Source: Nitrospirota bacterium
Lineage (GTDB): Bacteria > Nitrospirota > Thermodesulfovibrionia > UBA6902
Direction of reading: 5' to 3'
NCBI GenBank assembly: GCA_016234115.1
Contig: JACRHD010000060.1
Coordinates: 41,135-105,134, forward strand
DNA: 64,000 nt
This document shows, piece after piece, positions 1-62,995 of this stretch; positions within the stretch are counted from its first letter, which is position 1; each line of letters opens with the position of its first letter. Made by a program: the position numbers and the translations under genes. Under the pieces are notes generated by a model. That model had not been told where the DNA came from. It saw only the letters and a program-made list of their open reading frames with translations, and ran no database searches.

Positions 1-19
1 TTGACAGCCAAGGTATTTA

Positions 20-463
20 ATGTCTATGTTCATAACACGTAAAACAGATTACGCCATACGATGTATTCTTTACCTTTCAAAGGACCTTGACCGCATTGCC
101 ACTGTTGAAGAGATATCGAAAGCAGTTCATGTCCCGAAGACGTTCATGGCAAAGATACTTCAGCAACTGATGAAGGCCGGGATCGCGGGCTCTGTCCGGG
201 GTATAAAGGGAGGGTTTCAGCTTGCAAGAAATCCGGAGGACATCAACCTCCTTGAGGTCATTGAAGCCATTCAGGGTCCTTCGGCAGCCAATATATGCGC
301 TCTCGACAAGAAGGCGTGCAGTCTCAGCGGGACATGCGCCGTCCACACGGTATGGGTCGAGCTGCGCGAAGAGGTCAACAGTCGCCTGAAAAGCTGGGAT
401 TTCGGGAAACTGACGGATAGAGAAAACAGATTGTCACATAGGGCAAAATGTGATAAAAGGTAA
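20..463 (+). CDS. Rrf2-family (IscR/NsrR-like) Fe-S transcriptional regulator
   Basis: The N-terminal winged HTH reads 'TDYAIRCILYL...ISKAVHVPKTFMAKILQQLMKAGI...GGFQLAR', typical of Rrf2 proteins. Three C-terminal Cys (CALDKKACSLSGTC) are spaced like IscR/NsrR cluster ligands. It lies immediately upstream of ccoN. Confidence 0.8.
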   Translation: MSMFITRKTDYAIRCILYLSKDLDRIATVEEISKAVHVPKTFMAKILQQLMKAGIAGSVRGIKGGFQLARNPEDINLLEVIEAIQGPSAANICALDKKACSLSGTCAVHTVWVELREEVNSRLKSWDFGKLTDRENRLSHRAKCDKR

Positions 464-502
464 ATATGACATGTCTTTAACCTTTTTAAGAGGAGGCGCA
501 TC

Positions 503-1912
503 ATGAATGATTATCAATACGATAATCTGACGGTCAAAGGATTCATCACCTCCTCCATCTTCTGGGGTGTAGTAGGCATCCTCGCCGGAATCTGGATCTC
601 CATCCAGATGTGGAGTCCGTCATTGAATGTCCCCCCCTACTTCACATTCGGAAGATTGAGGGTGGTGCATACCAATATCCTGGCGTTCGGGCTCGTCCTG
701 GGATCTCTGATGGGAACATTCTACTACATCACAATGAGGCTGACCAGGAGACCTCTTCTCTTACCGAAGCTCGCAAGACTTACCTTGTATTTGTTCAACG
801 CCGCCATAGCGCTGGCCACGGTGACCCTGCTTCTTGGAATGACCCAGTCCCTTGAATACGCCGAGCTTGAATGGCCGCTCGACGTCGGGGTCGTTATTTT
901 ATGGGTGCTTTTTTCAGTCAATATTCTCGGCACTGTCATTAAAAGGAAAGAGGAACAGATGTACATCTCGCTCTGGTATATCATCGCCACGCTGATAACA
1001 ATTGCGGTGATCTACATTATCAATAACCTTTCCATCCCGGCGGGCCTCTTCAAGTCCTACCATCTTTTCGCTGGCGTCAACAGCGCCAACATCGAATGGT
1101 GGTACGGCCACAACGCGGTCGGGTCCGAACTCACAATGGCGGTCCTGGCAATATTCTATTACTTCCTGCCCAAATCCACGGGCATGCCGATATACAGCCA
1201 CAGGCTGTCGATAATCGCCTTCTGGTCGCTCGTATTCACATATCTCTGGACAGGCGCCCACCACCTTGTTTATACGCCTTTGCCGGACTGGATACAGACA
1301 CTCGGTATCGCCTTTACCGTGTTTCTCATTGCGCCGTCCTGGGGCTCGGTGGTAAACGGGTTCTATACCGTGGGCGCGGACTGGTCAAAGATGAGGACCC
1401 ATTATCTTACAAAATTCTTCATTCTCGGCATCACGTTCTACGGACTCCAGACCGTCCAGGGACCGACCCAGGGGCTCAGGGTGGTAAGCCAGTTGATCCA
1501 TTACACCGACTGGGTGCCCGGGCATGTGCATATGGGCACTATGGGATGGGACGCGCTGGTAATCGTCGCGGCCATTTACTATATCATCCCGCAGATATAT
1601 AAGACGGAGATATACAGCATAAAGATCGCAAATACCCATTTCTACCTCGTTTTGATCGGGCAACTGATCTTCTCGGTAACAATGTGGTTCACCGGGATCC
1701 AGCAAGGGGCCATGTGGAAGGCTTTAAACCCGGACGGAACGCTTAAGTACACGTTCATGGAGACCCTCGTGAAGAATTATCCCTTCTGGAAGATGAGGAC
1801 CCTTGGCGGAATTATATTCACTGTCGGGATGCTCTTTTTTATCTATAACATATACATGACGATCCGCAGGGGCAAGGAGCTGATTGCGTCAGGGGCGCAG
1901 GAGGTGGCATGA
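503..1912 (+). CDS. ccoN: cbb3-type cytochrome c oxidase subunit I (CcoN)
   Basis: 469-aa polytopic haem-copper oxidase with the conserved His ligands. It is followed by a CcoO-signature gene and a ccoGHIS-like set. An RBS (aggagg) precedes the ATG. Confidence 0.85.
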   Translation: MNDYQYDNLTVKGFITSSIFWGVVGILAGIWISIQMWSPSLNVPPYFTFGRLRVVHTNILAFGLVLGSLMGTFYYITMRLTRRPLLLPKLARLTLYLFNAAIALATVTLLLGMTQSLEYAELEWPLDVGVVILWVLFSVNILGTVIKRKEEQMYISLWYIIATLITIAVIYIINNLSIPAGLFKSYHLFAGVNSANIEWWYGHNAVGSELTMAVLAIFYYFLPKSTGMPIYSHRLSIIAFWSLVFTYLWTGAHHLVYTPLPDWIQTLGIAFTVFLIAPSWGSVVNGFYTVGADWSKMRTHYLTKFFILGITFYGLQTVQGPTQGLRVVSQLIHYTDWVPGHVHMGTMGWDALVIVAAIYYIIPQIYKTEIYSIKIANTHFYLVLIGQLIFSVTMWFTGIQQGAMWKALNPDGTLKYTFMETLVKNYPFWKMRTLGGIIFTVGMLFFIYNIYMTIRRGKELIASGAQEVA

Positions 1913-2853
1913 TGAAAGGCGAACTTTATAGAAGGCCCATACTGTTTGCTATTGTAGCTACTCTGGCCGTTCTTGTTGGAAGTATTGTTACTGCTATATA
2001 CCCGATATTTACCGAGCAGATGCATCCGAAGCTTGAAGCGCTTAAGCCCTTTACCGCCTTACAGCTTGCGGGAAGGGACATCTACCAGAGAGAAGGATGT
2101 GTTAATTGCCACACCCAGACCGTCAGGCCGCTTAAGACCGAAGTGCAGAGGTATGGCGAATACTCAAAGGCCGGGGAGTTCGCATACGACCATCCGTTTC
2201 TGTGGGGCTCCAAGAGGACCGGTCCCGACCTTGCGAGGATAGGAGGTAAATACCCCGATGCATGGCACTACAGGCATTTTGAAGATCCCGCGTCGTTCTT
2301 TGCGGAATCAAATATGCCCGCCTATGCATGGCTGAAGGACGAAAGGCTTGTTCCTTCCTCAGTGGAAGCCCACATGAAGGCGCTGAGTTTCCCGTATAAG
2401 AATGAAGAAATAGCCGCTCTTTCCGTCAAGTCGGAGCTTGACGCGCTTGTTTCTTATATGCAGGTAATAGGTACTTCCGTGGCAAAGAGACCCGTGGCAG
2501 CGACAACACATGTTGAAGTAGCAGAAGAGTCTCATCTTCAAAATCCCTTCGCAGGCGACGCGCAGGCTATAGCTTCCGGGAAAATGATCTACGCCGACAA
2601 CTGCGCAGTCTGCCATGATGATGATGCCGAAGGCGACATCGGCCCCGATCTGACCGATGATGTATTCCTTTATGCGGAAGGGGATTTACCGGATAATGAT
2701 TACTTTGAGATCATCAACAACGGCACGACGGCCGGGATAGTCGAGGAAGGACGCCGGGCAAAAGGCGGGATGCCCGCATACAAAGATGTATTAAGCAAAG
2801 ATGCGATATGGTCGGTAATCGCTTATATACGATCACTTCAGGAGAAGAAATAG
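1909..2853 (+). CDS. ccoO: cbb3 oxidase dihaem cytochrome c subunit (CcoO fused to a CcoP-like C-terminal haem domain)
   Basis: The N-terminal transmembrane segment is followed by CVNCH and the CcoO signature 'WGSKRTGPDLARIGGKY...WH..HF..P...S.MPAYAWL'. A second haem motif, CAVCHDDDAEGDIGPDL, lies in the C-terminal roughly 110 aa. The start overlaps the ccoN stop (ATGA). Confidence 0.8.
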   Translation: MMKGELYRRPILFAIVATLAVLVGSIVTAIYPIFTEQMHPKLEALKPFTALQLAGRDIYQREGCVNCHTQTVRPLKTEVQRYGEYSKAGEFAYDHPFLWGSKRTGPDLARIGGKYPDAWHYRHFEDPASFFAESNMPAYAWLKDERLVPSSVEAHMKALSFPYKNEEIAALSVKSELDALVSYMQVIGTSVAKRPVAATTHVEVAEESHLQNPFAGDAQAIASGKMIYADNCAVCHDDDAEGDIGPDLTDDVFLYAEGDLPDNDYFEIINNGTTAGIVEEGRRAKGGMPAYKDVLSKDAIWSVIAYIRSLQEKK

Positions 2854-2860
2854 AATTGTA

Positions 2861-2883
2861 GGGGCGAGGCGGCGCCTCGCCCT
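2861..2883 (+). terminator. GC-rich hairpin downstream of ccoO
   Basis: gggcgaggc-ggc-gcctcgccc is a perfect 9-bp stem located 8 nt after the stop. No U-tract follows, so this may be a stability element rather than an intrinsic terminator. Confidence 0.3.
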
Positions 2884-2963
2884 GAAGGGAGATTCACCGA
2901 ATCGCCCCTACGGGATTTCGGGTCTGACCGGAATCCGGACGAATAAAAGGAGGATGTAACTAT

Positions 2964-3413
2964 ATGTGCATGGATTACAAGAAGGAATGTTGCTGCGGCA
3001 GTAAGGTCGCCGGCTTTAATTTGAGGGACGGGGTAATGCCTGTCGGCGTTGTAAGCAGGCTTTATTGCCCCGAGTGTTCAAAGGATGTTGCTCATGACCC
3101 GGAGACTATGGTCCACGACAACGGCTGGATCATAGAATACGACATGGATGCCGCAAGGTTTATGGGCAAACAAATCTCTGTAACGAAAATTACGCCGGAT
3201 TTTCTTTTTGATGAAGGATACTGCACCTGGCGGGGAACATACCCAACGGACCACATAGATTCCGTGAGGGAGCGCGAAGAGATAATAAAACTTGCAAAGA
3301 CGGACCCTAAGAGATATTTCGCGGAAATCAGAAGATGGGGAACAGAAAGAATGGACCGCCTTGCCGCAGCCGGATGGAGGAAGGCGAATGAGCGTGAACA
3401 GTCAAAAGTTTAA
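2964..3413 (+). CDS. hypothetical Cys-rich protein
   Basis: 149-aa ORF with RBS aaggagg. It contains 'CCCGSK...CPEC' motifs. I could not recognise the family. Confidence 0.4.
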   Translation: MCMDYKKECCCGSKVAGFNLRDGVMPVGVVSRLYCPECSKDVAHDPETMVHDNGWIIEYDMDAARFMGKQISVTKITPDFLFDEGYCTWRGTYPTDHIDSVREREEIIKLAKTDPKRYFAEIRRWGTERMDRLAAAGWRKANEREQSKV

Positions 3414-3564
3414 TGGAAAGCCCGCGTGCGCGGAAAAGCCCGTGGCTTTTCCCGCGGAAATGACGTGCCCTCACTGCGGAGCGCTCGTTGAAATCTGGAA
3501 CGACGAGTACGAGGCCTCGTGCCCTCTTTGCAGAAAGACAGTGTACAGGGAGGAGTCATGGTAA
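3388..3564 (+). CDS. small zinc-ribbon protein (CxxC...CxxC)
   Basis: The ATG at 3388 is preceded by ggaggaagg. The protein reads 'MSVNSQKF...CPHCGALVEIWNDEYEASCPLCRK'. The start overlaps the stop of the upstream ORF. Confidence 0.4.
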   Translation: MSVNSQKFNGKPACAEKPVAFPAEMTCPHCGALVEIWNDEYEASCPLCRKTVYREESW

Positions 3565-3743
3565 ATGAATACGACAACTTGGAAGAGTTTGAAGCTGAAG
3601 AAACAAAAAACAAACTGCCCGCCGGCTGGCTGATACTTTTCTGGGGACTGATACTCTGGGGCATTTACTATTATGCCGCCTATAGTCCCGCCGTCAGCGG
3701 CTGGACACAGGAAAAGGCGTACGAGGAAACGTTGAAAAAATAA
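3558..3743 (+). CDS. small membrane protein resembling the CcoP N-terminus or CcoQ ('EYDN...LP.WW' plus one TM)
   Basis: RBS aggagg is followed by 'MVNEYDNLEEF...KLPAGWLILFWGLILWGIYYYAAYSP'. This pattern matches the N-terminal anchor region of CcoP, split off as a separate small subunit. Confidence 0.45.
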   Translation: MVNEYDNLEEFEAEETKNKLPAGWLILFWGLILWGIYYYAAYSPAVSGWTQEKAYEETLKK

Positions 3744-3835
3744 AGAAACCCGTTCCAACCGCTTGAGCCGCTCGAACCGCTTGAGCCGTGTAAACAGTTC
3801 AAGCGGTTCAAGCGTTAATAAAAGGAGGCTTAACC

Positions 3836-4456
3836 ATGTCAGACACATGCAGTTGTTTAGGATGCAATGTAGGCGAAACAGTACCGGACTTCAGGCTTGA
3901 GACTTACGAGCCGGCCAAGGGCGACTTCGGAGAGATCAGCCTTGAGACACTGAGGAATAATGGGAAGTGGACGATACTGTTTTTCTACCCTGCGGATTTC
4001 ACATTTGTCTGAGCTACCGAATTTGCTGCTCTGGCAGAGCAGTACGACAAGTTCAAAATGATGGACGCGGAGATCATTACAGTCAGCTCGGACACAAAGT
4101 TCGTGCACCTCGCGTGGCAGAGGGATGAAATGGAGCTGAAGGGGGTAAAATTCCCGATGGGCTCGGACACCACCGGCAAACTTGCGAGGATGTTCGGCGT
4201 TTATGATGAGAATACCGGCCTTTCATTAAGAGGCACCTTCATCATAAGTCCGGAAGGAAAGCTCATGAACTCGGAAGTCAATTTCTATAACCTCGGCAGG
4301 AACATTGACGAGCTGCTGAGAAAATTCAGGGCCAACCGCCATCTTGCGGAATACACTGCGGAGGCATGCCCTGCCCAATGGAGAAGCAACGGCGACCTGA
4401 CCCTGAAGCCTTCCGCCAAAATGGTCGGAAAGGTGCATGAAGCAATGGGGAAGTGA
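3836..4456 (+). CDS. selenocysteine-containing 2-Cys peroxiredoxin (in-frame UGA at 4010..4012 replaces the peroxidatic Cys)
   Basis: The ATG at 3836 (RBS aaggagg) opens a frame that reads ...FYPADFTFV-[TGA]-ATEFAA... and continues into ORF 4058..4456 in the same frame. The canonical peroxiredoxin motif is FTFVCPTE, so the TGA sits exactly at the peroxidatic-Cys position. The rest aligns to the AhpC/Prx fold ('VSSDTKFVHLAW', 'RGTFIISPEGKL...GRNIDELLR'). Confidence 0.75.
4026..4042 (+). promoter_or_regulatory. putative bacterial SECIS hairpin 13 nt downstream of the UGA
   Basis: ctgctct-ggc-agagcag forms a 7-bp stem with a small loop. It starts 13 nt 3' of the in-frame TGA, which is the spacing expected for a bacterial SECIS. 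Confidence 0.5.
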
Positions 4457-4520
4457 CAAGTGACGAGTAACAGGTGACAGGTGCCTTTTTACATGTTACT
4501 TGTCACTTGTTACTTGTTAC
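4453..4520. repeat. heptad-built inverted-repeat hairpin (GTGACAA GTGACGA GTAACAG GTGACAG / loop / GTTACTT GTCACTT GTTACTT)
   Basis: Four tandem GTRACRR heptads, a 14-nt spacer, then inverted copies. The first heptad contains the prx stop codon. Confidence 0.7.
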
Positions 4521-4534
4521 TATTTGGAGGATTC

Positions 4535-4630
4535 ATGGACATATCGGTCATCGCAACAATAGGTTTCACCACAATCGCAGCGCTGGGGATAGTGTTTATA
4601 TTATTAACTTCAGCCAGGAAGAGAAAATAA
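4535..4630 (+). CDS. small single-TM membrane protein (31 aa)
   Basis: RBS ggagg, then MDISVIATIGFTTIAALGIVFILLTSARKRK. It is bracketed by heptad repeats. Confidence 0.35.
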   Translation: MDISVIATIGFTTIAALGIVFILLTSARKRK

Positions 4631-4633
4631 AAT

Positions 4634-4798
4634 ATGACGTCTCAGCAGACAGCATATTTCGTCTTCGGACTCACGCTCGTTGTCATATTCACGGTAATAA
4701 TCATCTTTTACTCTTCAAAAAAGAGACACAAAGAGGTGGAGGGGCCGAAGTATAAAATGCTCGAGGATGAAGACAGAGAAGTGACGAGTGACAAGTAA
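4634..4798 (+). CDS. CcoS-like small membrane protein (divergent paralog)
   Basis: 54 aa with one TM and the tail 'EGPKYKMLEDEDRE'. The bona fide CcoS at 10202 ends 'AEKPKYRMLDDEDRQ'. The 3' end and stop of this gene lie inside a heptad repeat. Confidence 0.45.
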   Translation: MTSQQTAYFVFGLTLVVIFTVIIIFYSSKKRHKEVEGPKYKMLEDEDREVTSDK

Positions 4799-4866
4799 CA
4801 AGTGATCGGCAATTTACAAAAATCCCTCTAACTCGTTACCCGTTACTTGTTACCCGTTACTTGTTA
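4781..4866. repeat. heptad-built inverted-repeat element
   Basis: gtgacgagtgacaagtaacaagtga ... ctcgttacccgttacttgttacccgttacttgttac, running up to the ccoG start. Confidence 0.7.
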
Positions 4867-4869
4867 CTA

Positions 4870-6069
4870 ATGAAATTAAGGATACACACGTGGAGGCGTC
4901 TTGCCGGGATTGTCCAGGCGGTCATTATTATCGGTCTCCCTTTTCTCAGGACAGGCGGCGAGAGCGCGTTGCGGTTTGATATTCCGTCGCTGACGCTCCA
5001 CTTCTTCGGCGCCGGCATATGGATGGAAGATTTTTTTATCGTCCTGGTTGCCGTAATGTTCGTGACGCTTCTGCTTGCATTTATCACATTGATGTTCGGA
5101 AGGATATGGTGCGGATGGGCGTGTCCCCAGACGGTGCTCATCGATTTCACGCCCTTCGCGGACAAGATGAAATCCGGAGGCATTATATTCAAATCAGGGG
5201 CCTATGCCCTGATCTTTTTTATAAGCGTAATAGTCTCTGCAAATCTCATATGGTATTTCGTCTCGCCGTATGAATTCATAGGGAAGCTGACAGAGGGAGG
5301 TCCTGGAAATGTTACTCTTGGATTCTGGGTGGTCATGAGCGGAATCCTGTTTCTGAATTTTGCCATGCTCAGACACACCTTCTGCGCGACGGTCTGCCCT
5401 TATGCGAAACTGCAGAGCGTCCTGTTCGACGATAAGACGCTCGTTATATCCTTTGATCCGCGCAGAAAGCAAGAGTGCATGAAGTGCATGGCCTGCGTAA
5501 GGACATGTCCCGTCGGAATTGATATCAGGGAAGGGTCAAACGCCGCGTGTATAAGCTGCGCGCAGTGCATCGACGCATGCACAAACATCATGGAGCGCAG
5601 TCATAAGAAGTCCCTGATAGGATATTTCTTCGGTCTTCCGGGCACTGAGGGAAGGTTACTCCGCCGGAGCGCGGCAATCACGGGTTCGGCCTCTCTGGCG
5701 TTTCTGATTTTTTTTATATACCTTGTGCTGACACACGTTCCTCTCGACATGACCATTCTTCCCAACTACTCGTACCCTCCGCGCATCACGGCCGATGGCG
5801 GTGTCATCAACTCGTATATCCTTTCCCTTAAAAACAGGGGGAGGTCGGACGCGGAAATAGACATCACGGCAGCAGGGAAAGAAGGTGTTATCAAGTTGAC
5901 TCCCGACAGCGTACACCTCTCTGCGGGGGGACTGAAGAAATTACCTGTCTATGTACAGATTGACAATATACCAGGGAAAGAAACCCCGGTAAGCATCGAT
6001 ATATCTATAAGGTCAAAAGATTCAGGAGGCGACGCAGTCGTCAAAAAAGCAAATTTCATTATTCCGTAG
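4870..6069 (+). CDS. ccoG: cbb3 oxidase accessory 4Fe-4S membrane protein CcoG/FixG
   Basis: Carries the CcoG signature 'RIWCGWACPQT' and two ferredoxin motifs (CMKCMACVRTCP, CISCAQCIDAC). The C-terminal half is predicted periplasmic. Confidence 0.8.
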   Translation: MKLRIHTWRRLAGIVQAVIIIGLPFLRTGGESALRFDIPSLTLHFFGAGIWMEDFFIVLVAVMFVTLLLAFITLMFGRIWCGWACPQTVLIDFTPFADKMKSGGIIFKSGAYALIFFISVIVSANLIWYFVSPYEFIGKLTEGGPGNVTLGFWVVMSGILFLNFAMLRHTFCATVCPYAKLQSVLFDDKTLVISFDPRRKQECMKCMACVRTCPVGIDIREGSNAACISCAQCIDACTNIMERSHKKSLIGYFFGLPGTEGRLLRRSAAITGSASLAFLIFFIYLVLTHVPLDMTILPNYSYPPRITADGGVINSYILSLKNRGRSDAEIDITAAGKEGVIKLTPDSVHLSAGGLKKLPVYVQIDNIPGKETPVSIDISIRSKDSGGDAVVKKANFIIP

Positions 6070-6079
6070 GAAAACTAAA

Positions 6080-6137
6080 GTAACGGGTAACAAGTAACGA
6101 GTGACGAATAATTATTTAGTCACCCGTCACTTGTCAC
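6080..6137. repeat. heptad-built inverted-repeat element
   Basis: gtaacgggtaacaagtaacgagtgacga / ataattatttag / tcacccgtcacttgtcac. Confidence 0.7.
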
Positions 6138-6152
6138 TAAATGGAGTTACAT

Positions 6153-6635
6153 ATGAAAACGTTAATCATCACAGTATCAATATTCGCCCTTTCCGCTGTA
6201 GTCGGCGCCATTGTCGTCGGAGTCAATGTCTTTGACGGGGTCGTGGTTGAAAAGCCGTATGAGACGGGACTGGAATGGGACAGGATACAGAATGAACAGG
6301 CCGATTCGGGAGCGCTCAACGATAAGGGCCTCCACGCGGTTTTCGACATCAACCCGAAGCCCGTGAGGGCCATGTCCGAGCTCGTTTTCAGCATGTATCT
6401 TGAAGAATCCGGCAGACCTGTCACTGACGCTGATATTACTCTGGACCTGACGATGCCGGGAATGTTTATGGGTATCAACAGACCCGTACTTAAACACGTC
6501 AAAGACGGCAGATATGAAGGCAAGGGAGTTATCCCCGCATGTCCGCACGGGGGAAAGCAGTGGAAGGCGGAGGTGAACATTGAACGGGGCGGCAAAGTTG
6601 AGACTGCAAGTTATACTTTTGAGGTGAATCAATGA
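6153..6635 (+). CDS. FixH/CcoH-like membrane-anchored protein
   Basis: About 160 aa with an N-terminal TM. It sits between ccoG and ccoI, as fixH does. RBS ggag. Confidence 0.5.
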   Translation: MKTLIITVSIFALSAVVGAIVVGVNVFDGVVVEKPYETGLEWDRIQNEQADSGALNDKGLHAVFDINPKPVRAMSELVFSMYLEESGRPVTDADITLDLTMPGMFMGINRPVLKHVKDGRYEGKGVIPACPHGGKQWKAEVNIERGGKVETASYTFEVNQ

Positions 6636-6716
6636 CAGACAGAAAAAGGGGCAAGGGTTAAGAAAGAACCGGTCCGGGTTTTTACCCTTGACCCCTGACC
6701 CTTGACCCTCAATACT

Positions 6717-7382
6717 ATGGAACTAAGTTACACCCTCGCATTTACAACAGGCTTTCTCGGAGGCTTCGGACATTGCATAGGTATGTGCGGACCTATTATT
6801 ACAGCATATACTTTTCACAGCACTCCTGCCGGATTTTATCCGTCACCTGTCAGGAACGTTCTTCCCCACCTCTTCTACAACACAGGGCGCATTACTACGT
6901 ACATGTTCGCGGGCGCGGTAATGGGATTGACAGGTTCATTTGTGAACACGGCAGGCCGCTTAACTGGGTTTCAAAATTCAGTAGCGCTTATTGCCGGGCT
7001 CCTGATGTTAATAATGGGTATACGAATTTCAGGCATTACAGGCGGAATAACATGGCTCGAAAAACGTAACGGCCTCATTATCCGGGCAGGGAAAGGTCTG
7101 GCAGGCGGCGAAACCTTATGGATGTATTATCCCCTCGGGGCGTTATTCGGCTTTCTGCCGTGCGGCCTTTCCTATTCAGCGTTCCTGGCCGCAGCGGGAA
7201 GCGGCAGCATGCTGTCCGGCATGCTTACAACGTTCTTCTTCGGGCTCGGCACACTTCCCGCGTTACTGTTGTTCGGGCTTGCCGCCGGGTATCTGAGTAA
7301 TAAATTAAAAGGGCTGCTGTACAGATTGTCAGGAGTGATCGTCATTTTGACGGGGGGGTATTTTATTGTCAGAGCATTATAA
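6717..7382 (+). CDS. DsbD_2/UreH-like polytopic membrane protein with an HCxxMCGP motif (probable metal or thiol handling)
   Basis: Has 'GGFGHCIGMCGPII' and about six TM helices. It is located inside the ccoGHIS maturation cluster. Confidence 0.5.
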   Translation: MELSYTLAFTTGFLGGFGHCIGMCGPIITAYTFHSTPAGFYPSPVRNVLPHLFYNTGRITTYMFAGAVMGLTGSFVNTAGRLTGFQNSVALIAGLLMLIMGIRISGITGGITWLEKRNGLIIRAGKGLAGGETLWMYYPLGALFGFLPCGLSYSAFLAAAGSGSMLSGMLTTFFFGLGTLPALLLFGLAAGYLSNKLKGLLYRLSGVIVILTGGYFIVRAL

Positions 7383-7385
7383 TTC

Positions 7386-7645
7386 AAAAAAATCCCCCTT
7401 AATCCCCCTTTTTCAAAGGGGGACTTTTAGAATTCCCCTCTTTGGAAAAGACCAACAGTAGGTGCCTTAAGCAGGGGTCAGGGGGAGATTTTGTCAAAAC
7501 AAAGGTGAGTACAATGTATCCATTCAGTTATAGGGTGTATCTTTGTGCCGGAAAGAAACCCACCCCCCTCCCAGGAGGGGACCTTGTCTTTAGTCCCCTC
7601 TTGAGAGGGGTGCAGGGGTGTGTTATAACTTGTAACTGAATGGAT
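7386..7645. repeat. composite intergenic repeat (element B 7386-7425, element A 7434-7492, IR-flanked element C 7519-7645)
   Basis: B = aaaaatcccccttaatcccccttttcaaagggggactttt. A = cccctctttggaaaagaccaacagtaggtgccttaagcaggggtcaggggagatttt. C is flanked by gtatccattcagttat / aactgaatggatac and contains the palindromes cccctcttgagagggg and cccctcccaggagggg. Copies occur at 16686, 53571, 58581 and 62967. Confidence 0.75.
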
Positions 7646-7655
7646 ACAAATTCTT

Positions 7656-10097
7656 ATGCAAACATGTGACCACTGCTTACTTCAATTCCCGGACAGAGAA
7701 GCAGTCTACGGGGAAATCAAAGGCCGGAGACAGGTCTTCTGCTGTCACGGATGTATGGGTATTTTCAGTCTGATTAATGATGAGGGACTCGAAGAGTTTT
7801 ATGAGAAACGAGACTCATGGCTGCCCGGCCCCGCTTCCGACAAGCCGTGGAACGCAGCGGCCTTTACGGAACACGTGCGACAGGCCGGGAATGAACTCGA
7901 AACCGAAGTGGTCCTCGACGGCATAAGATGCGCCTCCTGCGTCTGGCTGAATGAGAAGGTCCTGGACAGGACAAAGGGAGTGACATTCGTCAGCGTCAAT
8001 TATGCCACTCATCGGGCAAGGATACGCTGGAGACCTGAAGACACCGGCCTTGATACAATCCTCAGAAGGATTGCGTCAATCGGATATACGCCTAAACCTC
8101 CTGTTGCAGCGGCATATGAAGAAGACTTGAAGGCCGGTCAGAAAGACCTTCTGATACGCCTTGGGACAGCCTCATTTTTTTCAATGCAGCTTATGCTGTA
8201 TTCCACTGCCCTTTACGCGGGATATTTCCAGGGGATTGATGAACGCACAAAAGACATTTTCCATCTCATCTCGCTGATGCTTACAACCCCCGTGCTTTTT
8301 TATTCCGGCTTTCCTTTCATAAATGGAGCGGCAAGGGGATTGCGAAACCGGGTATTCAATATGGACCTGCTTATTGTTACAGGGGCGGGCTCCGCATACC
8401 TGTACAGCATGTTCCAGATGTTTTCAGGCGGGAAGGTATATTTCGACACTGCCGCCATGATAATAACCCTCATCCTTTTAGGCAGATATATAGAGGCCGG
8501 GGCAAAGAGTAAGGCTTCACAAACAATAATCAGGCTCCTGTCTTTAAGTCCGAAGGAAGCGAAGAAAATAAAGGGGCAAGGGGCAAGGAGCAAGGGTCAA
8601 GGGTGGGGAGACACAGATTTCGAAACAGTCCTGATATCTTCTATAAAGCCGGGCGAATTGATTCAGGTGGCCCCGGGCGAGAAGATACCGCTTGACGGCA
8701 TTATGGTATCAGGATCATCAGAGGTCGATGAATCCATGCTTACAGGTGAATCAAGGCCTGTATCGAAGACAGAGGGCGCTGAGGTTTTCTGTGGTACGCA
8801 AAACTTATACGGTAACATCATTTTCGAAGTCAACAGGACCTCCGCGGACACTGTTCTTTCACAGATCATAAAGGTCGTCGGAGATGCGCAGGCGCGGCGC
8901 GCTCCGTTTCAAATGTTTGCGGACAGGGTTGTCGGCTTCTTTGTGCCGTCTGTCCTTCTTCTGAGTATCATGACATTTGCGTACCGCTTTTTAAACGGCA
9001 GCCCGGCCACCGAGGCACTGATGATTTCCATCTCCGTCCTCGTGATAGCCTGCCCGTGCGCCTTAGGTCTTGCAACGCCCCTTGCCGTACTCGCGGGCAC
9101 AACACGCGCCGCGTCAAAAGGCATATTGATCAAAGGCGGTGACGTAATAGAAATAGCAAAGAATATAGACCTTGCAGTCCTGGACAAGACAGGCACCATA
9201 ACAGAAGGCCGCCCCCTCCCCGGCCCGTTCATGACCAGAGGTCTTTCAGAAACAGAAGCCCTCAGCATCGCAGCGTCGCTTGAACGCCATTCCGAGCATT
9301 CGATAGGAAAGGCGATAGCCGGCGCGGCAAAGGGCCTTGAATTGCATGAAGTAACAGGCTTTACTGCGCATCCCGGCAAAGGAGTAAAGGGAGAGGTAAA
9401 CGGGAAGATAGCCCTCATTGGCAACAGGAGCTTCCTGGAATCTGAGGGAATCGATCTCAACCCGGACCATAGTATTCTCTCTGAATCCGTATCCCTCGAA
9501 TCAGCCGGAGCTACTGTTGTTTATTTATCTTATGACGGAGAATTCGCCGGGATATTTTCGGTGTCGGACGCCGTGCGGAAAGAAGCTGCGGAAGCAGTCC
9601 GGCTATTGCAACAGGAAGGTCTTGATGTGGAGATGATAACAGGAGATAATGGTATAACAGCATCGGCGGCGGCAAAGGATGCCTGGATAAATGAAGTAAA
9701 GGCCCGGATGTCTCCTGTTGAAAAGGCCGGTGAGATCAAAAGGATGCAGGATGTAGGAAGGCATGTGATGATGGTAGGTGACGGAATCAACGACGCTCCT
9801 GCGCTGGTGCAGGCCGACATAGGTATCGCGATGGGCAAGGGCACAGACATTGCCCTTGAAAGCTCCGACATGGTGCTGATGAGAGACGACCTCCGTCTTC
9901 TTCCCGAAGCCCTAAGCATTGCGAAAAAGACCTTCTCCGTGATCAGGCAGAATATCTTCTGGGCCTTCTTCTATAACGTGCTCGCGATTCCTCTTGCGAT
10001 AACAGGCGTCCTTCACCCTATTGCCGCAGCCGGCGCCATGGCGTTCAGCTCGTTGAGCGTGGTGGGGAATTCGTTGAGATTGTTGAGGATAAAATAA
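7656..10097 (+). CDS. ccoI: copper-translocating P1B-type ATPase CcoI/FixI
   Basis: Has the N-terminal CDHC...CCHGC motifs and an HMA-like 'GIRCASCV' motif. It also has the CPC motif (IACPCALGLATP), DKTGT, and the GDGINDAP hinge. 813 aa. Confidence 0.85.
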   Translation: MQTCDHCLLQFPDREAVYGEIKGRRQVFCCHGCMGIFSLINDEGLEEFYEKRDSWLPGPASDKPWNAAAFTEHVRQAGNELETEVVLDGIRCASCVWLNEKVLDRTKGVTFVSVNYATHRARIRWRPEDTGLDTILRRIASIGYTPKPPVAAAYEEDLKAGQKDLLIRLGTASFFSMQLMLYSTALYAGYFQGIDERTKDIFHLISLMLTTPVLFYSGFPFINGAARGLRNRVFNMDLLIVTGAGSAYLYSMFQMFSGGKVYFDTAAMIITLILLGRYIEAGAKSKASQTIIRLLSLSPKEAKKIKGQGARSKGQGWGDTDFETVLISSIKPGELIQVAPGEKIPLDGIMVSGSSEVDESMLTGESRPVSKTEGAEVFCGTQNLYGNIIFEVNRTSADTVLSQIIKVVGDAQARRAPFQMFADRVVGFFVPSVLLLSIMTFAYRFLNGSPATEALMISISVLVIACPCALGLATPLAVLAGTTRAASKGILIKGGDVIEIAKNIDLAVLDKTGTITEGRPLPGPFMTRGLSETEALSIAASLERHSEHSIGKAIAGAAKGLELHEVTGFTAHPGKGVKGEVNGKIALIGNRSFLESEGIDLNPDHSILSESVSLESAGATVVYLSYDGEFAGIFSVSDAVRKEAAEAVRLLQQEGLDVEMITGDNGITASAAAKDAWINEVKARMSPVEKAGEIKRMQDVGRHVMMVGDGINDAPALVQADIGIAMGKGTDIALESSDMVLMRDDLRLLPEALSIAKKTFSVIRQNIFWAFFYNVLAIPLAITGVLHPIAAAGAMAFSSLSVVGNSLRLLRIK

Positions 10098-10126
10098 TTA
10101 ACCACAGAGGACACAGAGAACAAAAG

Positions 10127-10191
10127 TGACAAGTGACGAGTAACAGGAGCTCAAAGAGCCCACCAGTCACTCGTTACTTGTCACTTGTTAC
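10127..10191. repeat. heptad-built inverted-repeat hairpin
   Basis: gtgacaagtgacgagtaacag / loop / gtcactcgttacttgtcacttgttac. Confidence 0.7.
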
Positions 10192-10201
10192 TTTTTATAT
10201 T

Positions 10202-10348
10202 ATGTGGAGCATACTTCTTTTAATATTTCTCACATTGTGCGCGGGGCTTGCCGCATGGCTGTTTTTCCTGTGGGCGGTCAAGAGCGGCCAGTATGATGAT
10301 GCGGAGAAGCCGAAGTATCGGATGCTTGATGATGAGGACAGACAGTGA
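10202..10348 (+). CDS. ccoS: cbb3 oxidase maturation protein CcoS/FixS
   Basis: 'MWSILLLIFLTLCAGLAAWLFFLWAVKSGQYDDAEKPKYRMLDDEDRQ' matches the CcoS consensus W..AVKSGQ(F/Y)DD.E.P. Its stop TGA is the first heptad of another half-repeat (10345-10373). Confidence 0.7.
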   Translation: MWSILLLIFLTLCAGLAAWLFFLWAVKSGQYDDAEKPKYRMLDDEDRQ

Positions 10349-10404
10349 CAAGTGACGAGTAACATGTAACAAGTTTTGCGCTTGACAACCGGAGTCCTTC
10401 GGTG

Positions 10405-10743
10405 TTAGATACCGATTATTTCATTCAACCCCTCAACTGCCAGTGCCAACTCTTCTGGAGATACCCTTCCAAGCTTCTTTCCAATTCTCTCAACAGAAAG
10501 AGTTCTAATCTGACTGATCTTAACCCAAGACCGTTTGGGTAAATATTCAAATTTTAATTCTAACGTCAAAGGAAAACCCGCATGTTGTGGCTGACTGGTA
10601 AGAGCCATAGCGATTACTGTTCCTGAACGCTCATTAAAGATATCATGACTCAAGATTAAGACAGGTCTCATGCCTGCTTGCTCATGACCACGCGTTGGAT
10701 TTAAATCAGCCCATCGAATCTCTCCCCTTAATATTTTGGCCAT
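10405..10743 (-). CDS. type II toxin, PemK/MazF-family endoribonuclease
   Basis: 'RGEIRWADLNPTRGHEQAGMRPVLILSHDIFNERSGTVIAMALTS' matches the MazF/PemK fold. It overlaps the upstream RHH gene by 16 nt. Confidence 0.8.
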   Translation of the reverse strand: MAKILRGEIRWADLNPTRGHEQAGMRPVLILSHDIFNERSGTVIAMALTSQPQHAGFPLTLELKFEYLPKRSWVKISQIRTLSVERIGKKLGRVSPEELALAVEGLNEIIGI

Positions 10744-10970
10744 TCACTTAAATCCTCGCATAATCCTTCCTCAGCCATCGCCCTCTCAAATGTTGGATCC
10801 AATTTGGCACATTCCTTTGCTAAACGATTGCGCTCCAATCTCTCTATTTTTTCATCAACCGCTTCCTGAATTGCCTGACTACGATTTGAAAAGATTTGTT
10901 CATGAACAAGATGGTCCAGGCGTTTGATAGAATCTTGTTCCAAAGTTATAGCAATTTTTGCTTTACTCAT
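10728..10970 (-). CDS. ribbon-helix-helix antitoxin (CopG/MazE-like)
   Basis: 'MSKAKIAITLEQDSIKRLDHLV...SNRSQAIQEAV' reads as an RHH motif. RBS gggaggtg. Confidence 0.7.
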   Translation of the reverse strand: MSKAKIAITLEQDSIKRLDHLVHEQIFSNRSQAIQEAVDEKIERLERNRLAKECAKLDPTFERAMAEEGLCEDLSEWPKY

Positions 10971-11492
10971 ATATTCACCTCCCGGTATTACCATATATCA
11001 TACCGAATACCGGAAATACGTTCAAGCTGCTATCATTCCACCCGTAACGGTCTTGCCATCGTGTCCCCCACCTTCAAACGATAAATTAAATTAAACAACA
11101 GTGCCGTTTCGAGTCAATGCATTTCGCTTTTAAAATATTTTTTCAAGGGCTGACCCCTTGCCGTTCTGATTTCAAGCCCCGACCCATTTGCTGCTCTTTA
11201 AAAGAGCAAAATGAAAGACTTGACCCTCATCCTTGACTCACTGTGGCACTCGTTCAACTCCATCACAAATGACAACTGTTTGTTTTTTAGAGACTTGAAA
11301 AACTGATATTCGCAATTCATCATATTACGCAGATAATACGCCCTTCGTAATATCCGGGCTCAATTACATTATGGTGGGACAAGATGCATAGGGACGCTTT
11401 ACCGTGTCATGAATTTCCGCTTGCCCACGCCTTGTTGATGAAAAGTATATTCCATCCTGGCTTCATGGTCAAGCAAATTCTTGGCAGCGGCC

Positions 11493-12509
11493 TCACAGCG
11501 TCTTCATAAACCCCTCAAGCGCCCCTATCTGTTTCCGGAGTCTTTCGAATTCCCTGAAATTCAGGGACTGGGGTCCGTCTGAAAGCGCGTGTTCCGGGTC
11601 CGGGTGCACCTCGATCATCGCGCCGTGAGCGCCCGCAGCGACAGAGGCTAAGGCCATTGACGGGACCAGGTTTCTCTTCCCGGTCGCATGACTCGGGTCG
11701 AAGATAACAGGCAGGTGAGAAATAGCCTTTACGAGAGTAATGACGGAAAGGTCTGCCGTATTGCGGGTGGCTGTCTCGAATGTCCTTATCCCCCGCTCGC
11801 AGAGAACAACTTCCGGGTTGCCCTCGAGGAGGATATATTCCGCGGAGGCTAACCATTCTTCCACGGTTGCTGAAAGCCCCCTCTTCAACAAGACCGGCTT
11901 GCGCGTCTTGCCGACTTCTTTAAGGAGGTCATAATTCTGCATATTGCGGGCGCCTATCTGGAGGACATCGACATGCTCCGAAACGAGCCCAACGTGTTCT
12001 GGGCTCATGACTTCAGTGATGGTAAGTATTCCGACCTCTTCCCCTACAGATGAAAGTATCTCAAGCCCCTCCTCCCTCAGGCCCTGGAAACTGTGAGGGC
12101 TTGTCCTCGGCTTATAGGCCCCTCCCCTCAGGACAGGGACACCGATCTTTTTGAGGAAGCGCGCCGTCCTGAAAGTCTGCTTCCTGTCCTCGACAGCGCA
12201 GGGTCCTGCAATCAGCAGGAAGGGAGACTTTCCGCCCACCTTTGTCTTTCCGCCGATTTTGACCACGGTGTCTGCGGGATGGAAGTCCCTGCTCACTAAT
12301 TTATAAGGCTTGGTAACGTGGATTATCTCTAATATCCCCTTCATGCCCCTGAAAGGAGTATCGTCCACCCATCCCTGGTTTCCTATCACTCCGATGGCAG
12401 TCCTCTCAGCGCCTGGAATCGCAACGGCCTTAAATCCAATAGAGGAGATTGTCTTTTTTACCTTCTCAACATCCTTCCCCAAAGCCGAATGGTGCATCAC
12501 TATGAGCAT
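11493..12509 (-). CDS. 3-deoxy-7-phosphoheptulonate (DAHP) synthase, class I-beta with an N-terminal regulatory (ferredoxin-like/ACT) domain
   Basis: 'LLIAGPCAVEDR', 'GGAYKPRTSPHSFQGLREEGL' and 'VIFDPSHATG' form the DAHPS/KDO8PS TIM-barrel core. Confidence 0.8.
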   Translation of the reverse strand: MLIVMHHSALGKDVEKVKKTISSIGFKAVAIPGAERTAIGVIGNQGWVDDTPFRGMKGILEIIHVTKPYKLVSRDFHPADTVVKIGGKTKVGGKSPFLLIAGPCAVEDRKQTFRTARFLKKIGVPVLRGGAYKPRTSPHSFQGLREEGLEILSSVGEEVGILTITEVMSPEHVGLVSEHVDVLQIGARNMQNYDLLKEVGKTRKPVLLKRGLSATVEEWLASAEYILLEGNPEVVLCERGIRTFETATRNTADLSVITLVKAISHLPVIFDPSHATGKRNLVPSMALASVAAGAHGAMIEVHPDPEHALSDGPQSLNFREFERLRKQIGALEGFMKTL

Positions 12510-12713
12510 GACCGACTCCTTCCCTCTTTCTTAATGCAGGCGTCCTCTAAAGAACAAAGATTTATTGTTCGCTGAGAAAAGATGGTTTATTCTAAATTCA
12601 CTGGTAGGAAATATCAAGATAATTTCGACTCTCGAAGTAACCGCTCATGCAGGGACATAGACTCCTTCCTGCCGCCCCAGGCAACTATAGTCTGTGGCAA
12701 AATGACAATCGCC

Positions 12714-13391
12714 CTAAACCGGCCTCCCAATCCTCTGATAGTTGGCCATGGATTTATTGCATATGTAACATGGCGCCAAAGGCTGTTCGGCAAGGGTAGA
12801 GCCGCAGACTTTGCATACGTAAAAATCAAACTTCATTTCTTCAATTCTGCCGACTATTACGGATAGAAAGAACCTGGCGTATTTGTTTAATTGGCCTATC
12901 AGCTCCTGGTGCTGCTGATGGGATTTCCACGAATACATGCAACAACTGACGGCCTCGTCATATGCATCGGTTTCCAGTTTCTTCAGGATATCGGGATAGA
13001 TTATTTCTATTTTTCGCATTTCTATTTGCGCGGCCTCTTTCAGGTTTTTCTTGGTATCTTTCATGTTGATTTCTATATGAATGTCCTGCACCTTTTCCCC
13101 GGAGGCTTCCAGGACAGCCTTATAATTGTCCGCGTGTATCTCCTCCGAAACAGCAAAAGCCCCAAACAGGTATGCAATATTGGGATAATTCTCCTGCAAG
13201 GCCTTGTCTTTAAAACTCTCGTAATGCTCATAAGCCGACATTTCAGCTAAATAGGCATCATGCAAGGCCGATACTGTTACGGGGCATTCCCTTAATGTCT
13301 TATGACATTCTTTTTCGCCCTGAGCGGGCAACGCATAGATAAGAGATGAAGCCATTGCAAGATGCAGAAACTGTCTTCTTGATAAATCCAT
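12714..13391 (-). CDS. rubrerythrin-family diiron protein with a twin-arginine (Tat) signal peptide and a C-terminal rubredoxin-like Cys4 domain
   Basis: N-terminus 'MDLSRRQFLHLAMASSLIYALPAQG'. Ferritin-like ExxH motifs (EEIH, KSHQQH). C-terminus CKVCG...CYIC. Confidence 0.55.
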   Translation of the reverse strand: MDLSRRQFLHLAMASSLIYALPAQGEKECHKTLRECPVTVSALHDAYLAEMSAYEHYESFKDKALQENYPNIAYLFGAFAVSEEIHADNYKAVLEASGEKVQDIHIEINMKDTKKNLKEAAQIEMRKIEIIYPDILKKLETDAYDEAVSCCMYSWKSHQQHQELIGQLNKYARFFLSVIVGRIEEMKFDFYVCKVCGSTLAEQPLAPCYICNKSMANYQRIGRPV

Positions 13392-16603: not shown

Positions 16604-16685
16604 ATGTTAATAGGTCCTTCACAGGGCCAACGCCTCGCCCTGCCGACTGGGTCTGCGACAAAAAAGTTGGGGCTCTCAACTAATT

Positions 16686-16840
16686 CCCCTCTTTGGAAAA
16701 GACCAACAGTAGGTGCCTTAAGCAGGGGTCAGGGGAGATTTGTTGAAAACGATTATTCCGAAAAATCCCCCTTCATCCCCCTTTGCCAAAGGGGGAATAT
16801 GGCTTTACCAATAAATTTGTCGCACACCCCTGCCAACTCC
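16686..16840. repeat. composite intergenic repeat (element A 16686-16742, element B 16761-16798, truncated C-like segment about 16821-16840)
   Basis: Near-identical to the 7434-7492 and 7386-7425 copies. Confidence 0.75.
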
Positions 16841-62894: not shown

Positions 62895-62966
62895 GCAATT
62901 TATTTTCCGGATCATCGTGGAAAAGCGCGGGTAAAAACCCCTGAATTTGGATATGATTAATTGTAT

Positions 62967-62995
62967 CCCCCCTTTTTCAAAGGGGGAGACGGCAC
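62967..62995. repeat. element-B fragment (cccccctttttcaaagggggagacggcac)
   Basis: Shares the palindrome with the B copies at 7386, 16761 and 53633. Confidence 0.6.

Follow-up and report, generated by a model that had tools for sequence, protein, structure and literature searches.

Heptad hairpins in a cbb3 oxidase operon

The DNA analysed here is a 64,000-nucleotide stretch from a Nitrospirota bacterium (contig JACRHD010000060.1, positions 41,135 to 105,134; the whole stretch is called the window below), in which a cbb3-type cytochrome oxidase (cco) operon carries a family of long hairpins at its gene junctions. The original prediction described these hairpins as tandem GTRACRR heptads that are followed, after a loop, by the inverted heptads. 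Regular-expression searches, Tandem Repeats Finder (TRF), shuffled sequences and RNA folding agree that long hairpins made of tandem, slippage-prone heptads are indeed present, at the following five sites, of which the first four are referred to as HP1 to HP4:

4453-4520: HP1, four GTRACRR heptads, a 12-nt loop and four inverted heptads, between prx (3836-4456) and a 31-amino-acid (aa) open reading frame (ORF; ATG at 4535)
4781-4867: HP2, three heptads, a 31-nt loop and five inverted heptads, between ccoQ (4634-4798) and ccoG (ATG at 4870)
6080-6137: HP3, four heptads, a 9-nt loop and three inverted heptads, between ccoG (stop at 6067-6069) and fixH (ATG at 6153)
10126-10191: HP4, three heptads, a 17-nt loop and four inverted heptads, between ccoI (stop at 10095-10097) and ccoS (ATG at 10202)
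10345-10372, + strand: half copy, the purine arm alone with four heptads, at the 3' end of ccoS

Searching the 64 kb by regular expression for arrays of at least two GTRACNN heptads returned 4453-4480, 4781-4801, 6080-6107, 10126-10146 and 10345-10372 in the forward orientation and 4493-4520, 4833-4867, 6117-6137 and 10164-10191 in the inverted orientation, and no further array beyond the five sites. Together with TRF, which reports a period of 7 at all five sites with 3.1 to 5.4 copies per arm, this search bears out the predicted locations, with two boundaries corrected, the end of HP2 to 4867 and the start of HP4 to 10126. A four-heptad pattern matches seven times in the window and 0.00 times in shuffled sequence, and a two-heptad pattern with at most one mismatch matches 26 times against 0.46 expected, 25 of the 26 lying inside the five sites. 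The earlier claim that the elements are confined to the cco cluster holds within the window, where no other arrays occur, and for the window alone. RNA folding yields -38.8 kcal/mol for HP1 (z -8.5), -32.6 for HP2 (z -6.0), -19.4 for HP3 (z -3.2) and -36.8 for HP4 (z -8.3), while the half copy forms no hairpin (z -0.7). The predicted stems of HP1 to HP4 have about 17 to 30 pairs when G-U is counted, a range that by prediction reaches the length of about 20 bp or more typical of RNase III-type intercistronic hairpins; a single operon transcript is read from gene order only.

Most heptads fit the proposed GTRACRR unit, but some inner ones (GTAACAT, GTGACTG, GTGACTA) do not end in RR; G1, T2, A4 and C5 are invariant, whereas positions 3, 6 and 7 vary. 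HP1 and HP4 are identical over the outer 24 nt on the left and about 20 nt on the right, and their right arms are offset by one heptad. The 19-mer GTGACAAGTGACGAGTAAC is common to both hairpins and the half copy, so that these three sites have strings of 19 to 24 nt in common, the mark of copying between sites, while the loops of HP1 to HP4 are mutually unrelated. The left flank of HP4 is ACAAAA and its right flank TTTTTATATT. A second assembler recovered part of the locus independently: a 3.4-kb Logan contig of run SRR12113407 that carries ccoI reproduces HP4, the half copy and a further heptad array inside ccoI (below) with identical copy numbers, and no heptad copy-number polymorphism was seen between this contig and the window, both of which derive from one sample.

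Hairpins fit between stop codon and ribosome-binding site

The host operon extends from 503 to 10348, every gene in it is intact, and an Rrf2 regulator lies upstream of ccoN; its CcoN matches a protein of a 'Nitrospirae bacterium' metagenome-assembled genome with 100% identity and has its relatives in Thermodesulfovibrionia. Its genes are:

503-1912, + strand: ccoN (Pfam and relatives)
1909-2853, + strand: ccoO/P fusion (Pfam and relatives)
2964-3413, + strand: ORF of 149 aa, function unknown
3836-4456, + strand: prx, probable selenocysteine (Sec)-type peroxiredoxin
4535-4630, + strand: ORF of 31 aa
4634-4798, + strand: ccoQ (57% identity to a FixQ-family protein of the relative L122)
4870-6069, + strand: ccoG
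6153-6635, + strand: fixH
6717-7382, + strand: DsbD_2 gene
7656-10097, + strand: ccoI
10202-10348, + strand: ccoS

Each of the five sites is intergenic or overlaps nothing more than a stop codon. The hairpins start 0 to 28 nt past a stop codon and end 2 to 15 nt ahead of the next start codon or, if present, of an unpaired Shine-Dalgarno sequence, such as the GGAGG at 4526-4530 that HP1 leaves unpaired or the GGAG at 6143-6146 after HP3. As the original prediction had noticed, three stop codons fall within heptads: the TGA of prx (4454-4456) in heptad 1 of HP1, the TGA of ccoS (10346-10348) in heptad 1 of the half copy, and the TAA of a 54-aa ORF (4796-4798) in heptad 3 of HP2. This last ORF had been labeled CcoS-like, a label that has to be replaced: its 57% identity to the FixQ-family protein of L122 makes it the CcoQ/FixQ orthologue. 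The array adds seven residues, REVTSDK, to the C-terminus of CcoQ, and CcoS gains two. Every purine arm (GTGACAA or GTAACAA) contains TGA or TAA, and because 7 and 3 are coprime, three heptads suffice to place a stop codon in each frame. The pyrimidine arm, read from the sequence, has no stop codon in any frame. In other genomes and in phages, arrays often supply the stop of the upstream gene as well, at offsets of -4, -11 and -18.

The prx gene that ends in HP1 has a peculiarity of its own. An in-frame TGA at 4010-4012 replaces the peroxidatic cysteine (FYPADFTFV-stop-ATEF), and a 9-bp stem-loop begins 14 nt 3' of this TGA. The product is probably a selenocysteine peroxiredoxin whose gene was inserted among the cco genes; the relatives have no prx at the corresponding position.

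Related cco clusters are compact and free of heptads

The operon was compared with the cco clusters of three relatives: L122 (CcoN 88% identical), L124/L125 (81%) and the complete genome behind L136 (79%). A closer one, P0002 (91%), is a 2.8-kb contig that ends within ccoO and is uninformative for the junctions. No heptad arrays were found in the three clusters, and their genes abut or overlap: ccoG and fixH are 1 nt apart or overlap, ccoI and ccoS are separated by 2 nt, and ccoQ and ccoG share 14 nt, as in L122. In the window, HP2 pulls this ccoQ/ccoG overlap apart, and the homologue of the relatives' ccoQ stop region is now found 3' of HP2, inside ccoG. Since the corresponding genes of the three relatives abut or overlap and carry no heptads there, HP1 to HP4 are recent lineage-specific insertions and not a conserved feature of cco operons. 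Comparing the window junctions with the relatives disclosed no convincing target-site duplication, only a 5-nt ATGAA repeat around HP2, which is needed anyway to un-overlap ccoQ and ccoG. Recent transfer of the cco cluster is unlikely, since its GC content is ordinary and the synteny with the upstream Rrf2 gene is kept between window and relatives; on the same grounds, horizontal transfer of the cluster was rejected as the cause of the crowding of repeats.

Other repeats and neighboring features of the operon

Tandem repeats with other units accompany the GTRACRR elements:

6646-6710: second heptad-family hairpin, an AAGGGGC/AAGGGTT arm and then a CCCTTGA/CCCCTGA arm, at the fixH-DsbD_2 junction
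8571-8603, + strand: array of 4.7 AAGGGGC copies, in frame within ccoI
3757-3814: tandem 9-mer hairpin, AACCGCTYG / CAAGCGGTT, upstream of prx

The hairpin at 6646-6710 folds with -28.5 kcal/mol (z -2.7) and again has its purine- and G-rich arm on the 5' side. In ccoI, the array encodes a Gly/Lys/Gln-rich insertion (KGQGARSKGQGWG region) in a variable loop, which is 7 aa (21 nt, three heptads) longer than in L122 and 12 aa longer than in L124. The 9-mer hairpin (-30.5/-34.5 kcal/mol) has the same layout of a foldback of tandem units with a different period. Altogether, repeats of some kind occupy nearly every junction of the cco operon, among them a 273-nt block of dispersed repeats ahead of ccoI, and the remaining 54 kb of the window contain no heptad-type repeats.

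Several further observations concern the same junctions. Tandem 9-mers (CACAGAGAA, 2.2 copies) lie directly left of HP4 at 10103-10122. Right after the ccoO/P fusion, a GC-rich hairpin (GTAGGGGCGAGGCG..., 2858-2911, -35 kcal/mol) may mark the end of the structural-gene transcript. The DsbD_2-ccoI spacer (7379-7655), where the genes overlap in the relatives, is filled by a separate dispersed repeat: it includes a nested inverted repeat (7515-7648), a 54-nt segment at 7431-7484 that recurs with 100% identity at 16682-16735, and a hairpin module (ATCCCCCTT...AAAGGGGGA) found at three places (7379-7655, 16682-16796 and 62943-62987). Downstream of the half copy, a terminator-like hairpin (10399-10415) separates the cco operon from a PemK/MazF toxin and ribbon-helix-helix antitoxin pair, which is encoded convergently on the - strand at 10405-10994.

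The heptad family is widespread in bacteria and phages

A GTDB scan for four GTRAC heptads, with one genome per species, found at least 120 blocks in Acidobacteriota (many of them in Pyrinomonadaceae, Blastocatellia), Thermodesulfovibrionia, Cyanobacteria, Bacteroidota, Chloroflexota, Planctomycetota, Verrucomicrobiota, Omnitrophota and others; two-armed hairpins like those of the window were present at 14 sites among the GTDB matches listed. The 22-mer common to HP1 and HP4 occurs exactly in 10 JGI metagenome contigs with a GC content of 42-63%, about seven of which are distinct, with about five of the distinct ones being hairpins. With a stricter pattern, 84 stretches were found in IMG/VR phage contigs, where well below one was expected. 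By crude ORF calls, arrays are intergenic rather than coding in 122 versus 31 cases in genomes (among the matches listed) and in 79 versus 31 cases in viral contigs. Arms range from 2 to 7 heptads across loci, and single arms are found in either orientation with respect to genes. Even within Thermodesulfovibrionia the family is found outside cco: at locus L016 a hairpin lies between a NuoF-like gene and a formate-dehydrogenase-like gene. The molybdopterin oxidoreductase beside that hairpin (3685-6399, - strand) is split into two adjacent ORFs, which may reflect a selenocysteine TGA as in formate dehydrogenases.

Two loci repeat the layout of the window in unrelated operons. In a metagenome-assembled genome of Thermomicrobiales (L057; DATBFX010000377.1, 1-8000), the S10 ribosomal operon carries seven heptad hairpins made of at least six different units. 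Six of them are distributed among ten Pfam-identified ribosomal protein genes (S10/L3, L3/L4, L2/S19, S3/L16, S17/L14 and after L14), the seventh lies at 7645-7699, and the first array starts at the S10 stop codon. Several unrelated heptad units thus stand side by side in one operon both here and in the window. In a phage contig (L180; IMG/VR 3300037043_000420, 4654-13169), GTRACRR hairpins occupy five junctions of the head module, whose genes encode the head maturation protease, decoration protein and major head protein. A related phage (L190; IMG/VR 3300037044_000223, 1-3488), whose flanking genes are 77-98% identical, allows three of these junctions to be compared. One hairpin is identical in both phages; at a second junction a GTGACRR hairpin in L180 corresponds to a hairpin of GGGTGCA/CTGCCCC units in L190; and at the third an A9-stem-T7 hairpin in L180 stands against an unrelated 16-nt spacer in L190, with no target-site duplication between the filled and the empty junction.

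The GTRACRR family is therefore widespread in bacteria and phages and is not specific to cco. This weakens the earlier impression that restriction to one operon is unusual, as clusters at successive junctions recur in the S10 operon and in the phage head module. It also speaks against a device that belongs to the cbb3 operon: three relatives do without the hairpins, and the same family sits at unrelated junctions elsewhere.

The purine arm comes first

In GTRACRR hairpins the purine arm is always on the 5' side, whichever DNA strand is read. The overall count is about 34:0, comprising 4:0 in the window, 14:0 in genome blocks (among the matches listed), 15:0 in phage contigs and further cases in metagenome contigs. 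A TRF survey of all period-7 foldbacks in the window and the fetched loci (L002-L217) gave 19:0 for GTNAC units and 17:3 for unrelated units, counting purine excess and G over C, so that the purine- and G-rich arm is 5' in 36:3 period-7 hairpins. Ordinary perfect inverted repeats in the same DNA have no G/C polarity (62 versus 57) and a mild purine bias (60 versus 43).

When the two strands are folded as RNA, HP1 is better on the + strand, HP3 on the - strand, and HP4 is equal, so that the test of G-U/A-C asymmetry reveals no consistent sense-strand advantage across hairpins; this asymmetry was accordingly dropped as support for an RNA-specific role. As single-stranded DNA, the purine and pyrimidine strands differ in self-folding in the expected direction by 0-4 kcal/mol only, too weak for the idea of a strand snapping back on itself.

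Relation to known repeat classes

Tandem heptamers have been described in several bacterial groups. In cyanobacteria, 7-bp short tandemly repeated repetitive (STRR) hairpins lie between hupS and hupL; their function is unknown, with suggested roles in transcript stability, translational coupling and termination (PMC2670836). The elements of the window resemble STRRs in being intergenic tandem 7-nt units able to form hairpins inside operons between two cistrons, and the Nostoc unit TTGTCAG (44 copies; PMC2408588, Table 3), which on the complement strand reads CTGACAA, is one base apart from the GTGACAA of the window (PMC2408588). They differ in their host (Nitrospirota, Thermodesulfovibrionia), in the unit GTRACRR, in the dominance of the two-armed form and in their occurrence also in Acidobacteriota, Bacteroidota, Verrucomicrobiota and phages. 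Host and unit exclude STRRs in the strict sense, which would have units STRR1 to STRR3 and a cyanobacterial genome; these canonical units reportedly go back to Mazel and colleagues in 1990. In the broad sense the elements are STRR-like, with head-to-tail 7-nt tandem copies, mostly intergenic positions and length changes by whole units.

A second relative is the TAACTGA direct repeat of Beggiatoaceae, Cyanobacteria and Bacteroidetes, found inside ribosomal-protein operons and overlapping ORF ends (MacGregor 2015, PMC4679880). It shares with the window elements the intergenic heptamers in 2 to 6 copies, the position internal to operons near start codons, the overlap with ORF ends, the TAA/TGA content and a scattered occurrence across phyla for which no transfer mechanism is known. 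However, TAACTGA sets are nearly all one-armed (1 of 170 inverted), oriented to the downstream start and overlapping the ribosome-binding region (PMC4679880), whereas those of the window are mostly foldbacks that spare the Shine-Dalgarno sequence. The GGGAATC repeats of Xanthomonas and the GGGGAYT repeats of Nostoc are also intergenic heptamers, some of them inverted (Rehm et al. 2015, PMC4692102), and PMC4692102 attributes to Mrazek et al. 2007 the over-representation of heptameric simple sequence repeats. Like the window elements, they vary in length between close relatives, their inverted pairs can form stem-loops, and one lies inside an operon (pecE-pecF); slippage linked to the polymerase footprint has been proposed as their origin (PMC4692102). 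They differ in being rich in G-tracts and studied as G-quadruplex formers, while GTRACRR has no G-tracts. Finally, Geobacter metallireducens has paired tandem-repeat elements of 3 to 5 units of 7 to 9 nt, whose partners lie on opposite strands with spacings that vary (Aklujkar et al. 2009, PMC2700814), present in dozens of copies between and within genes with unknown function. Their units (TCTCCGTS[Y], MTYCTGA, GGACCGG) differ from ours and were read as sites of global regulators, and that paper did not analyse stop-codon anatomy or arm polarity (PMC2700814).

Other classes were considered, most of which were rejected. Like REP, BIME and REPIN elements, the hairpins are imperfect palindromes in intergenic positions within operons; REP elements are able to stabilise the mRNA upstream of them. 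REP and REPIN sequences, however, are not internally tandem, have a conserved sequence and loop and have a cognate REP-associated tyrosine transposase (RAYT). Here, the arms are tandem heptads, the loops of HP1 to HP4 are unrelated, and no RAYT is found among the 40 large ORFs of the window. CRISPR arrays, which consist of direct repeats of 24-48 nt with unique spacers of similar size and usually adjoin cas genes, are excluded by contiguous 7-mers without spacers and by the lack of cas domains in Pfam scans of the window. The original prediction was therefore right that the elements are neither CRISPR repeats nor classic REP/BIME. A miniature inverted-repeat transposable element (MITE) or other foldback transposon would match the inverted arms, but there is no target-site duplication and the internal sequence is not conserved. 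Like intrinsic terminators and phage T7-type RNase III hairpins, the elements are stem-loops between cistrons, with a stem length that suits a double-strand RNase; the stems are far longer and richer in A-U and G-U than typical terminators, and most have no U-tract. Intrinsic terminators, with their short G+C-rich stem, small loop and 3' U-tract, were rejected because the scan called none on the + strand and a T-run follows HP4 only. The flanks are A-rich on the 5' side (4.5 of 10 versus 2.35) and T-rich on the 3' side (3.8 versus 2.3), an ambiguous enrichment, as the flanks resemble decayed heptads and GTGACTG-type hairpins break the pattern. Rfam 15 gave no match at gathering score and only sub-threshold miRNA-precursor hits (28 versus 80-89 bits), which are due to the long stem.

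A full-text literature search for the heptad strings returned no description of the GTRACRR unit family. What is new here is this unit in Nitrospirota, other phyla and phages, whereas the kind itself is known but unexplained. To our knowledge, heptamer repeats, noted as over-represented in bacteria since 2007 and in cyanobacteria since 1990, have no accepted origin or function.

Origin and possible role of the hairpins

We favor, with a probability of roughly 0.55, the explanation that the GTRACRR elements are heptanucleotide simple-sequence foldback repeats, of the general class of the cyanobacterial STRRs and intergenic heptamer repeats. Of the origins that the original prediction offered, "microsatellite-derived" comes closest to what tandem, slippage-prone heptads are. 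Slippage and quasi-palindrome mutagenesis are established processes, and in the present case a 7-nt unit with a GTNAC core would expand in tandem through replication slippage, while the inverted array would arise, and be kept roughly complementary, via strand or template switching in a quasi-palindrome. Copies would also spread locally, given the identical 19-24-mers at three sites. They would persist only where they are harmless, which here means the short gap that separates a stop codon from the Shine-Dalgarno sequence of the next gene: the TGA or TAA that the purine arm offers in all frames would still terminate any abutting gene, and an insert that folds on itself would keep stop and start close and the untranslated RNA from being naked. 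Selection would filter for survivors that supply a stop, spare the ribosome-binding site and fold on themselves. In the mRNA, a stem-loop of 17-30 bp would, if it acts at all, probably block 3' exonucleases in a general way, be cut by a double-strand RNase or terminate transcription weakly, without being a control element specific to cco. The hairpins may thus be tolerated, and perhaps used, as intercistronic mRNA stem-loops.

The observations favor elements that are built in place and turn over quickly, and not a sequence-specific transposon, because different units stand at the same phage junction, a filled and an empty junction differ without target-site duplication, and different units coexist in one operon. 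Lengths change by whole heptads, as in the offset right arms of HP1 and HP4 and the 21-nt in-frame gain in ccoI, and Pfam scans of the 40 large window ORFs found no transposase, RAYT, reverse transcriptase or integrase. Four observations nevertheless sit uneasily with simple-sequence foldbacks. Ten junction elements of several kinds are crowded into one 10-kb operon while the other 54 kb lack the heptad type, which tolerated random insertion fails to predict and which suggests short-range spread or selection in the transcription unit. The strict arm polarity (about 34:0) is not predicted by slippage with symmetric template switching. Size-constrained phages keep five hairpins in their head module, and a phage junction retains a hairpin even though its sequence has been replaced, both of which hint at function.

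These last points lend themselves to an adaptive interpretation, which we regard as a serious possibility, albeit one that we tend to doubt. Here, the hairpins would be intercistronic RNA elements that segment the polycistronic cco mRNA as exonuclease barriers, RNase III-type sites (at least 21 bp, or three heptads) or leaky terminators, and would set separate levels for ccoNO, prx, ccoQ and ccoGHIS, like the hairpins between phage head genes. Their placement exactly between a stop codon and the next, unpaired, Shine-Dalgarno sequence would fit such a role, as would HP2 at the classical ccoNOQP/ccoGHIS boundary, predicted stems of 17-30 bp that suffice for a double-strand RNase, and the layout of A-tract, stem and T-tract in HP4 and at the third phage junction (site c). 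The hairpin-at-every-junction layout that recurs in the S10 operon and the head module, the phage junction that keeps a hairpin despite a differing heptad unit, and a polarity that could reflect an RNA-level constraint point the same way. From position, stem length and phage retention, a role in the stability or processing of intercistronic mRNA is plausible. Yet three relatives have compact and presumably functional operons without any hairpin, near-identical phages are polymorphic for presence and absence, and folding confers no consistent advantage on the sense strand. Nor does the terminator scan call any hairpin on the + strand, the only T-run being that after HP4, and neither the half copy nor the in-frame ccoI array has a structural role.

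If the hairpins were instead non-autonomous mobile foldback elements (MITE- or REPIN-like), moved by an enzyme encoded elsewhere in the genome or in a phage, local hops and cross-phylum spread on phages would explain the identical terminal 19-24-mers of HP1, HP4 and the half copy, the AGA(G/C)A(A/G) left flank common to three sites, the tight local clustering, the recurrence of the same heptad words in 84 phage-contig stretches and in genomes with a GC content of 42-63%, and the filled and empty site in related phages. We consider this unlikely: the filled/empty comparison is a spacer replacement and not a clean insertion, target-site duplications were not found, the loops are unrelated, arm lengths vary by whole heptads, many distinct units behave alike within one operon, and neither transposase nor RAYT is among the 40 window ORFs. 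Much less likely still are DNA-level arrays of binding sites, with GTNAC cores every 7 bp (21 bp being two helical turns) for a regulator, nucleoid protein or restriction-modification enzyme, although G1, T2, A4 and C5 are invariant next to variable positions 3, 6 and 7 and both arms contain GTNAC, itself a 5-bp palindrome. The sites are inside the operon at 3' ends and not at promoters, the relatives lack them, units without GTNAC display the same architecture and polarity, and single arms occur in either orientation to genes, which makes the regulator-binding array of the original prediction improbable as well. An assembly artefact or chance, finally, deserves hardly any credence. The window does come from a metagenome-assembled genome, in which inverted repeats can be chimeric, but shuffled sequences gave zero matches, the arms have the form of imperfect arrays, a second assembler recovered HP4 and the half copy, and members of the family are present in isolate genomes as well as in hundreds of assemblies made independently.

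The relatives show the ancestral, compact and overlapping junctions, and with nearly every one of these junctions now filled, the operon amounts to a natural experiment. Simple-sequence foldbacks can enter even 1-15-nt junctions of essential operons, bringing their own stop codons and obeying a strand-symmetric arm polarity. For annotation, this means that arrays alter C-termini (CcoQ by seven residues, CcoS by two) and insert in-frame peptides (CcoI). Stop-codon donation, entry into overlapping junctions and arm polarity are the aspects most worth following. As to the polarity, two candidates are avoidance of Rho, in which the C-rich arm would emerge second, be paired at once and never be seen by Rho, and snap-back synthesis, in which the 3' end of the G-rich strand would fold back and prime the copying of the inverted arm. 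It is tempting to speculate, though we rate the odds as low, that a polar, junction-seeking process operates in many phyla and their phages, be it this kind of snap-back synthesis or an unknown enzyme or mobile element. If so, this process would install stem-loops, with the purine- and G-rich arm first, exactly in the gap from a stop codon to the ribosome-binding site that follows, and the 5' position of the G-rich arm would be a general law that reflects either a mode of synthesis or a selective filter. If the polarity stems from Rho avoidance or from snap-back synthesis, it would provide a testable handle on how operons tolerate, or exploit, fast-evolving RNA structure.

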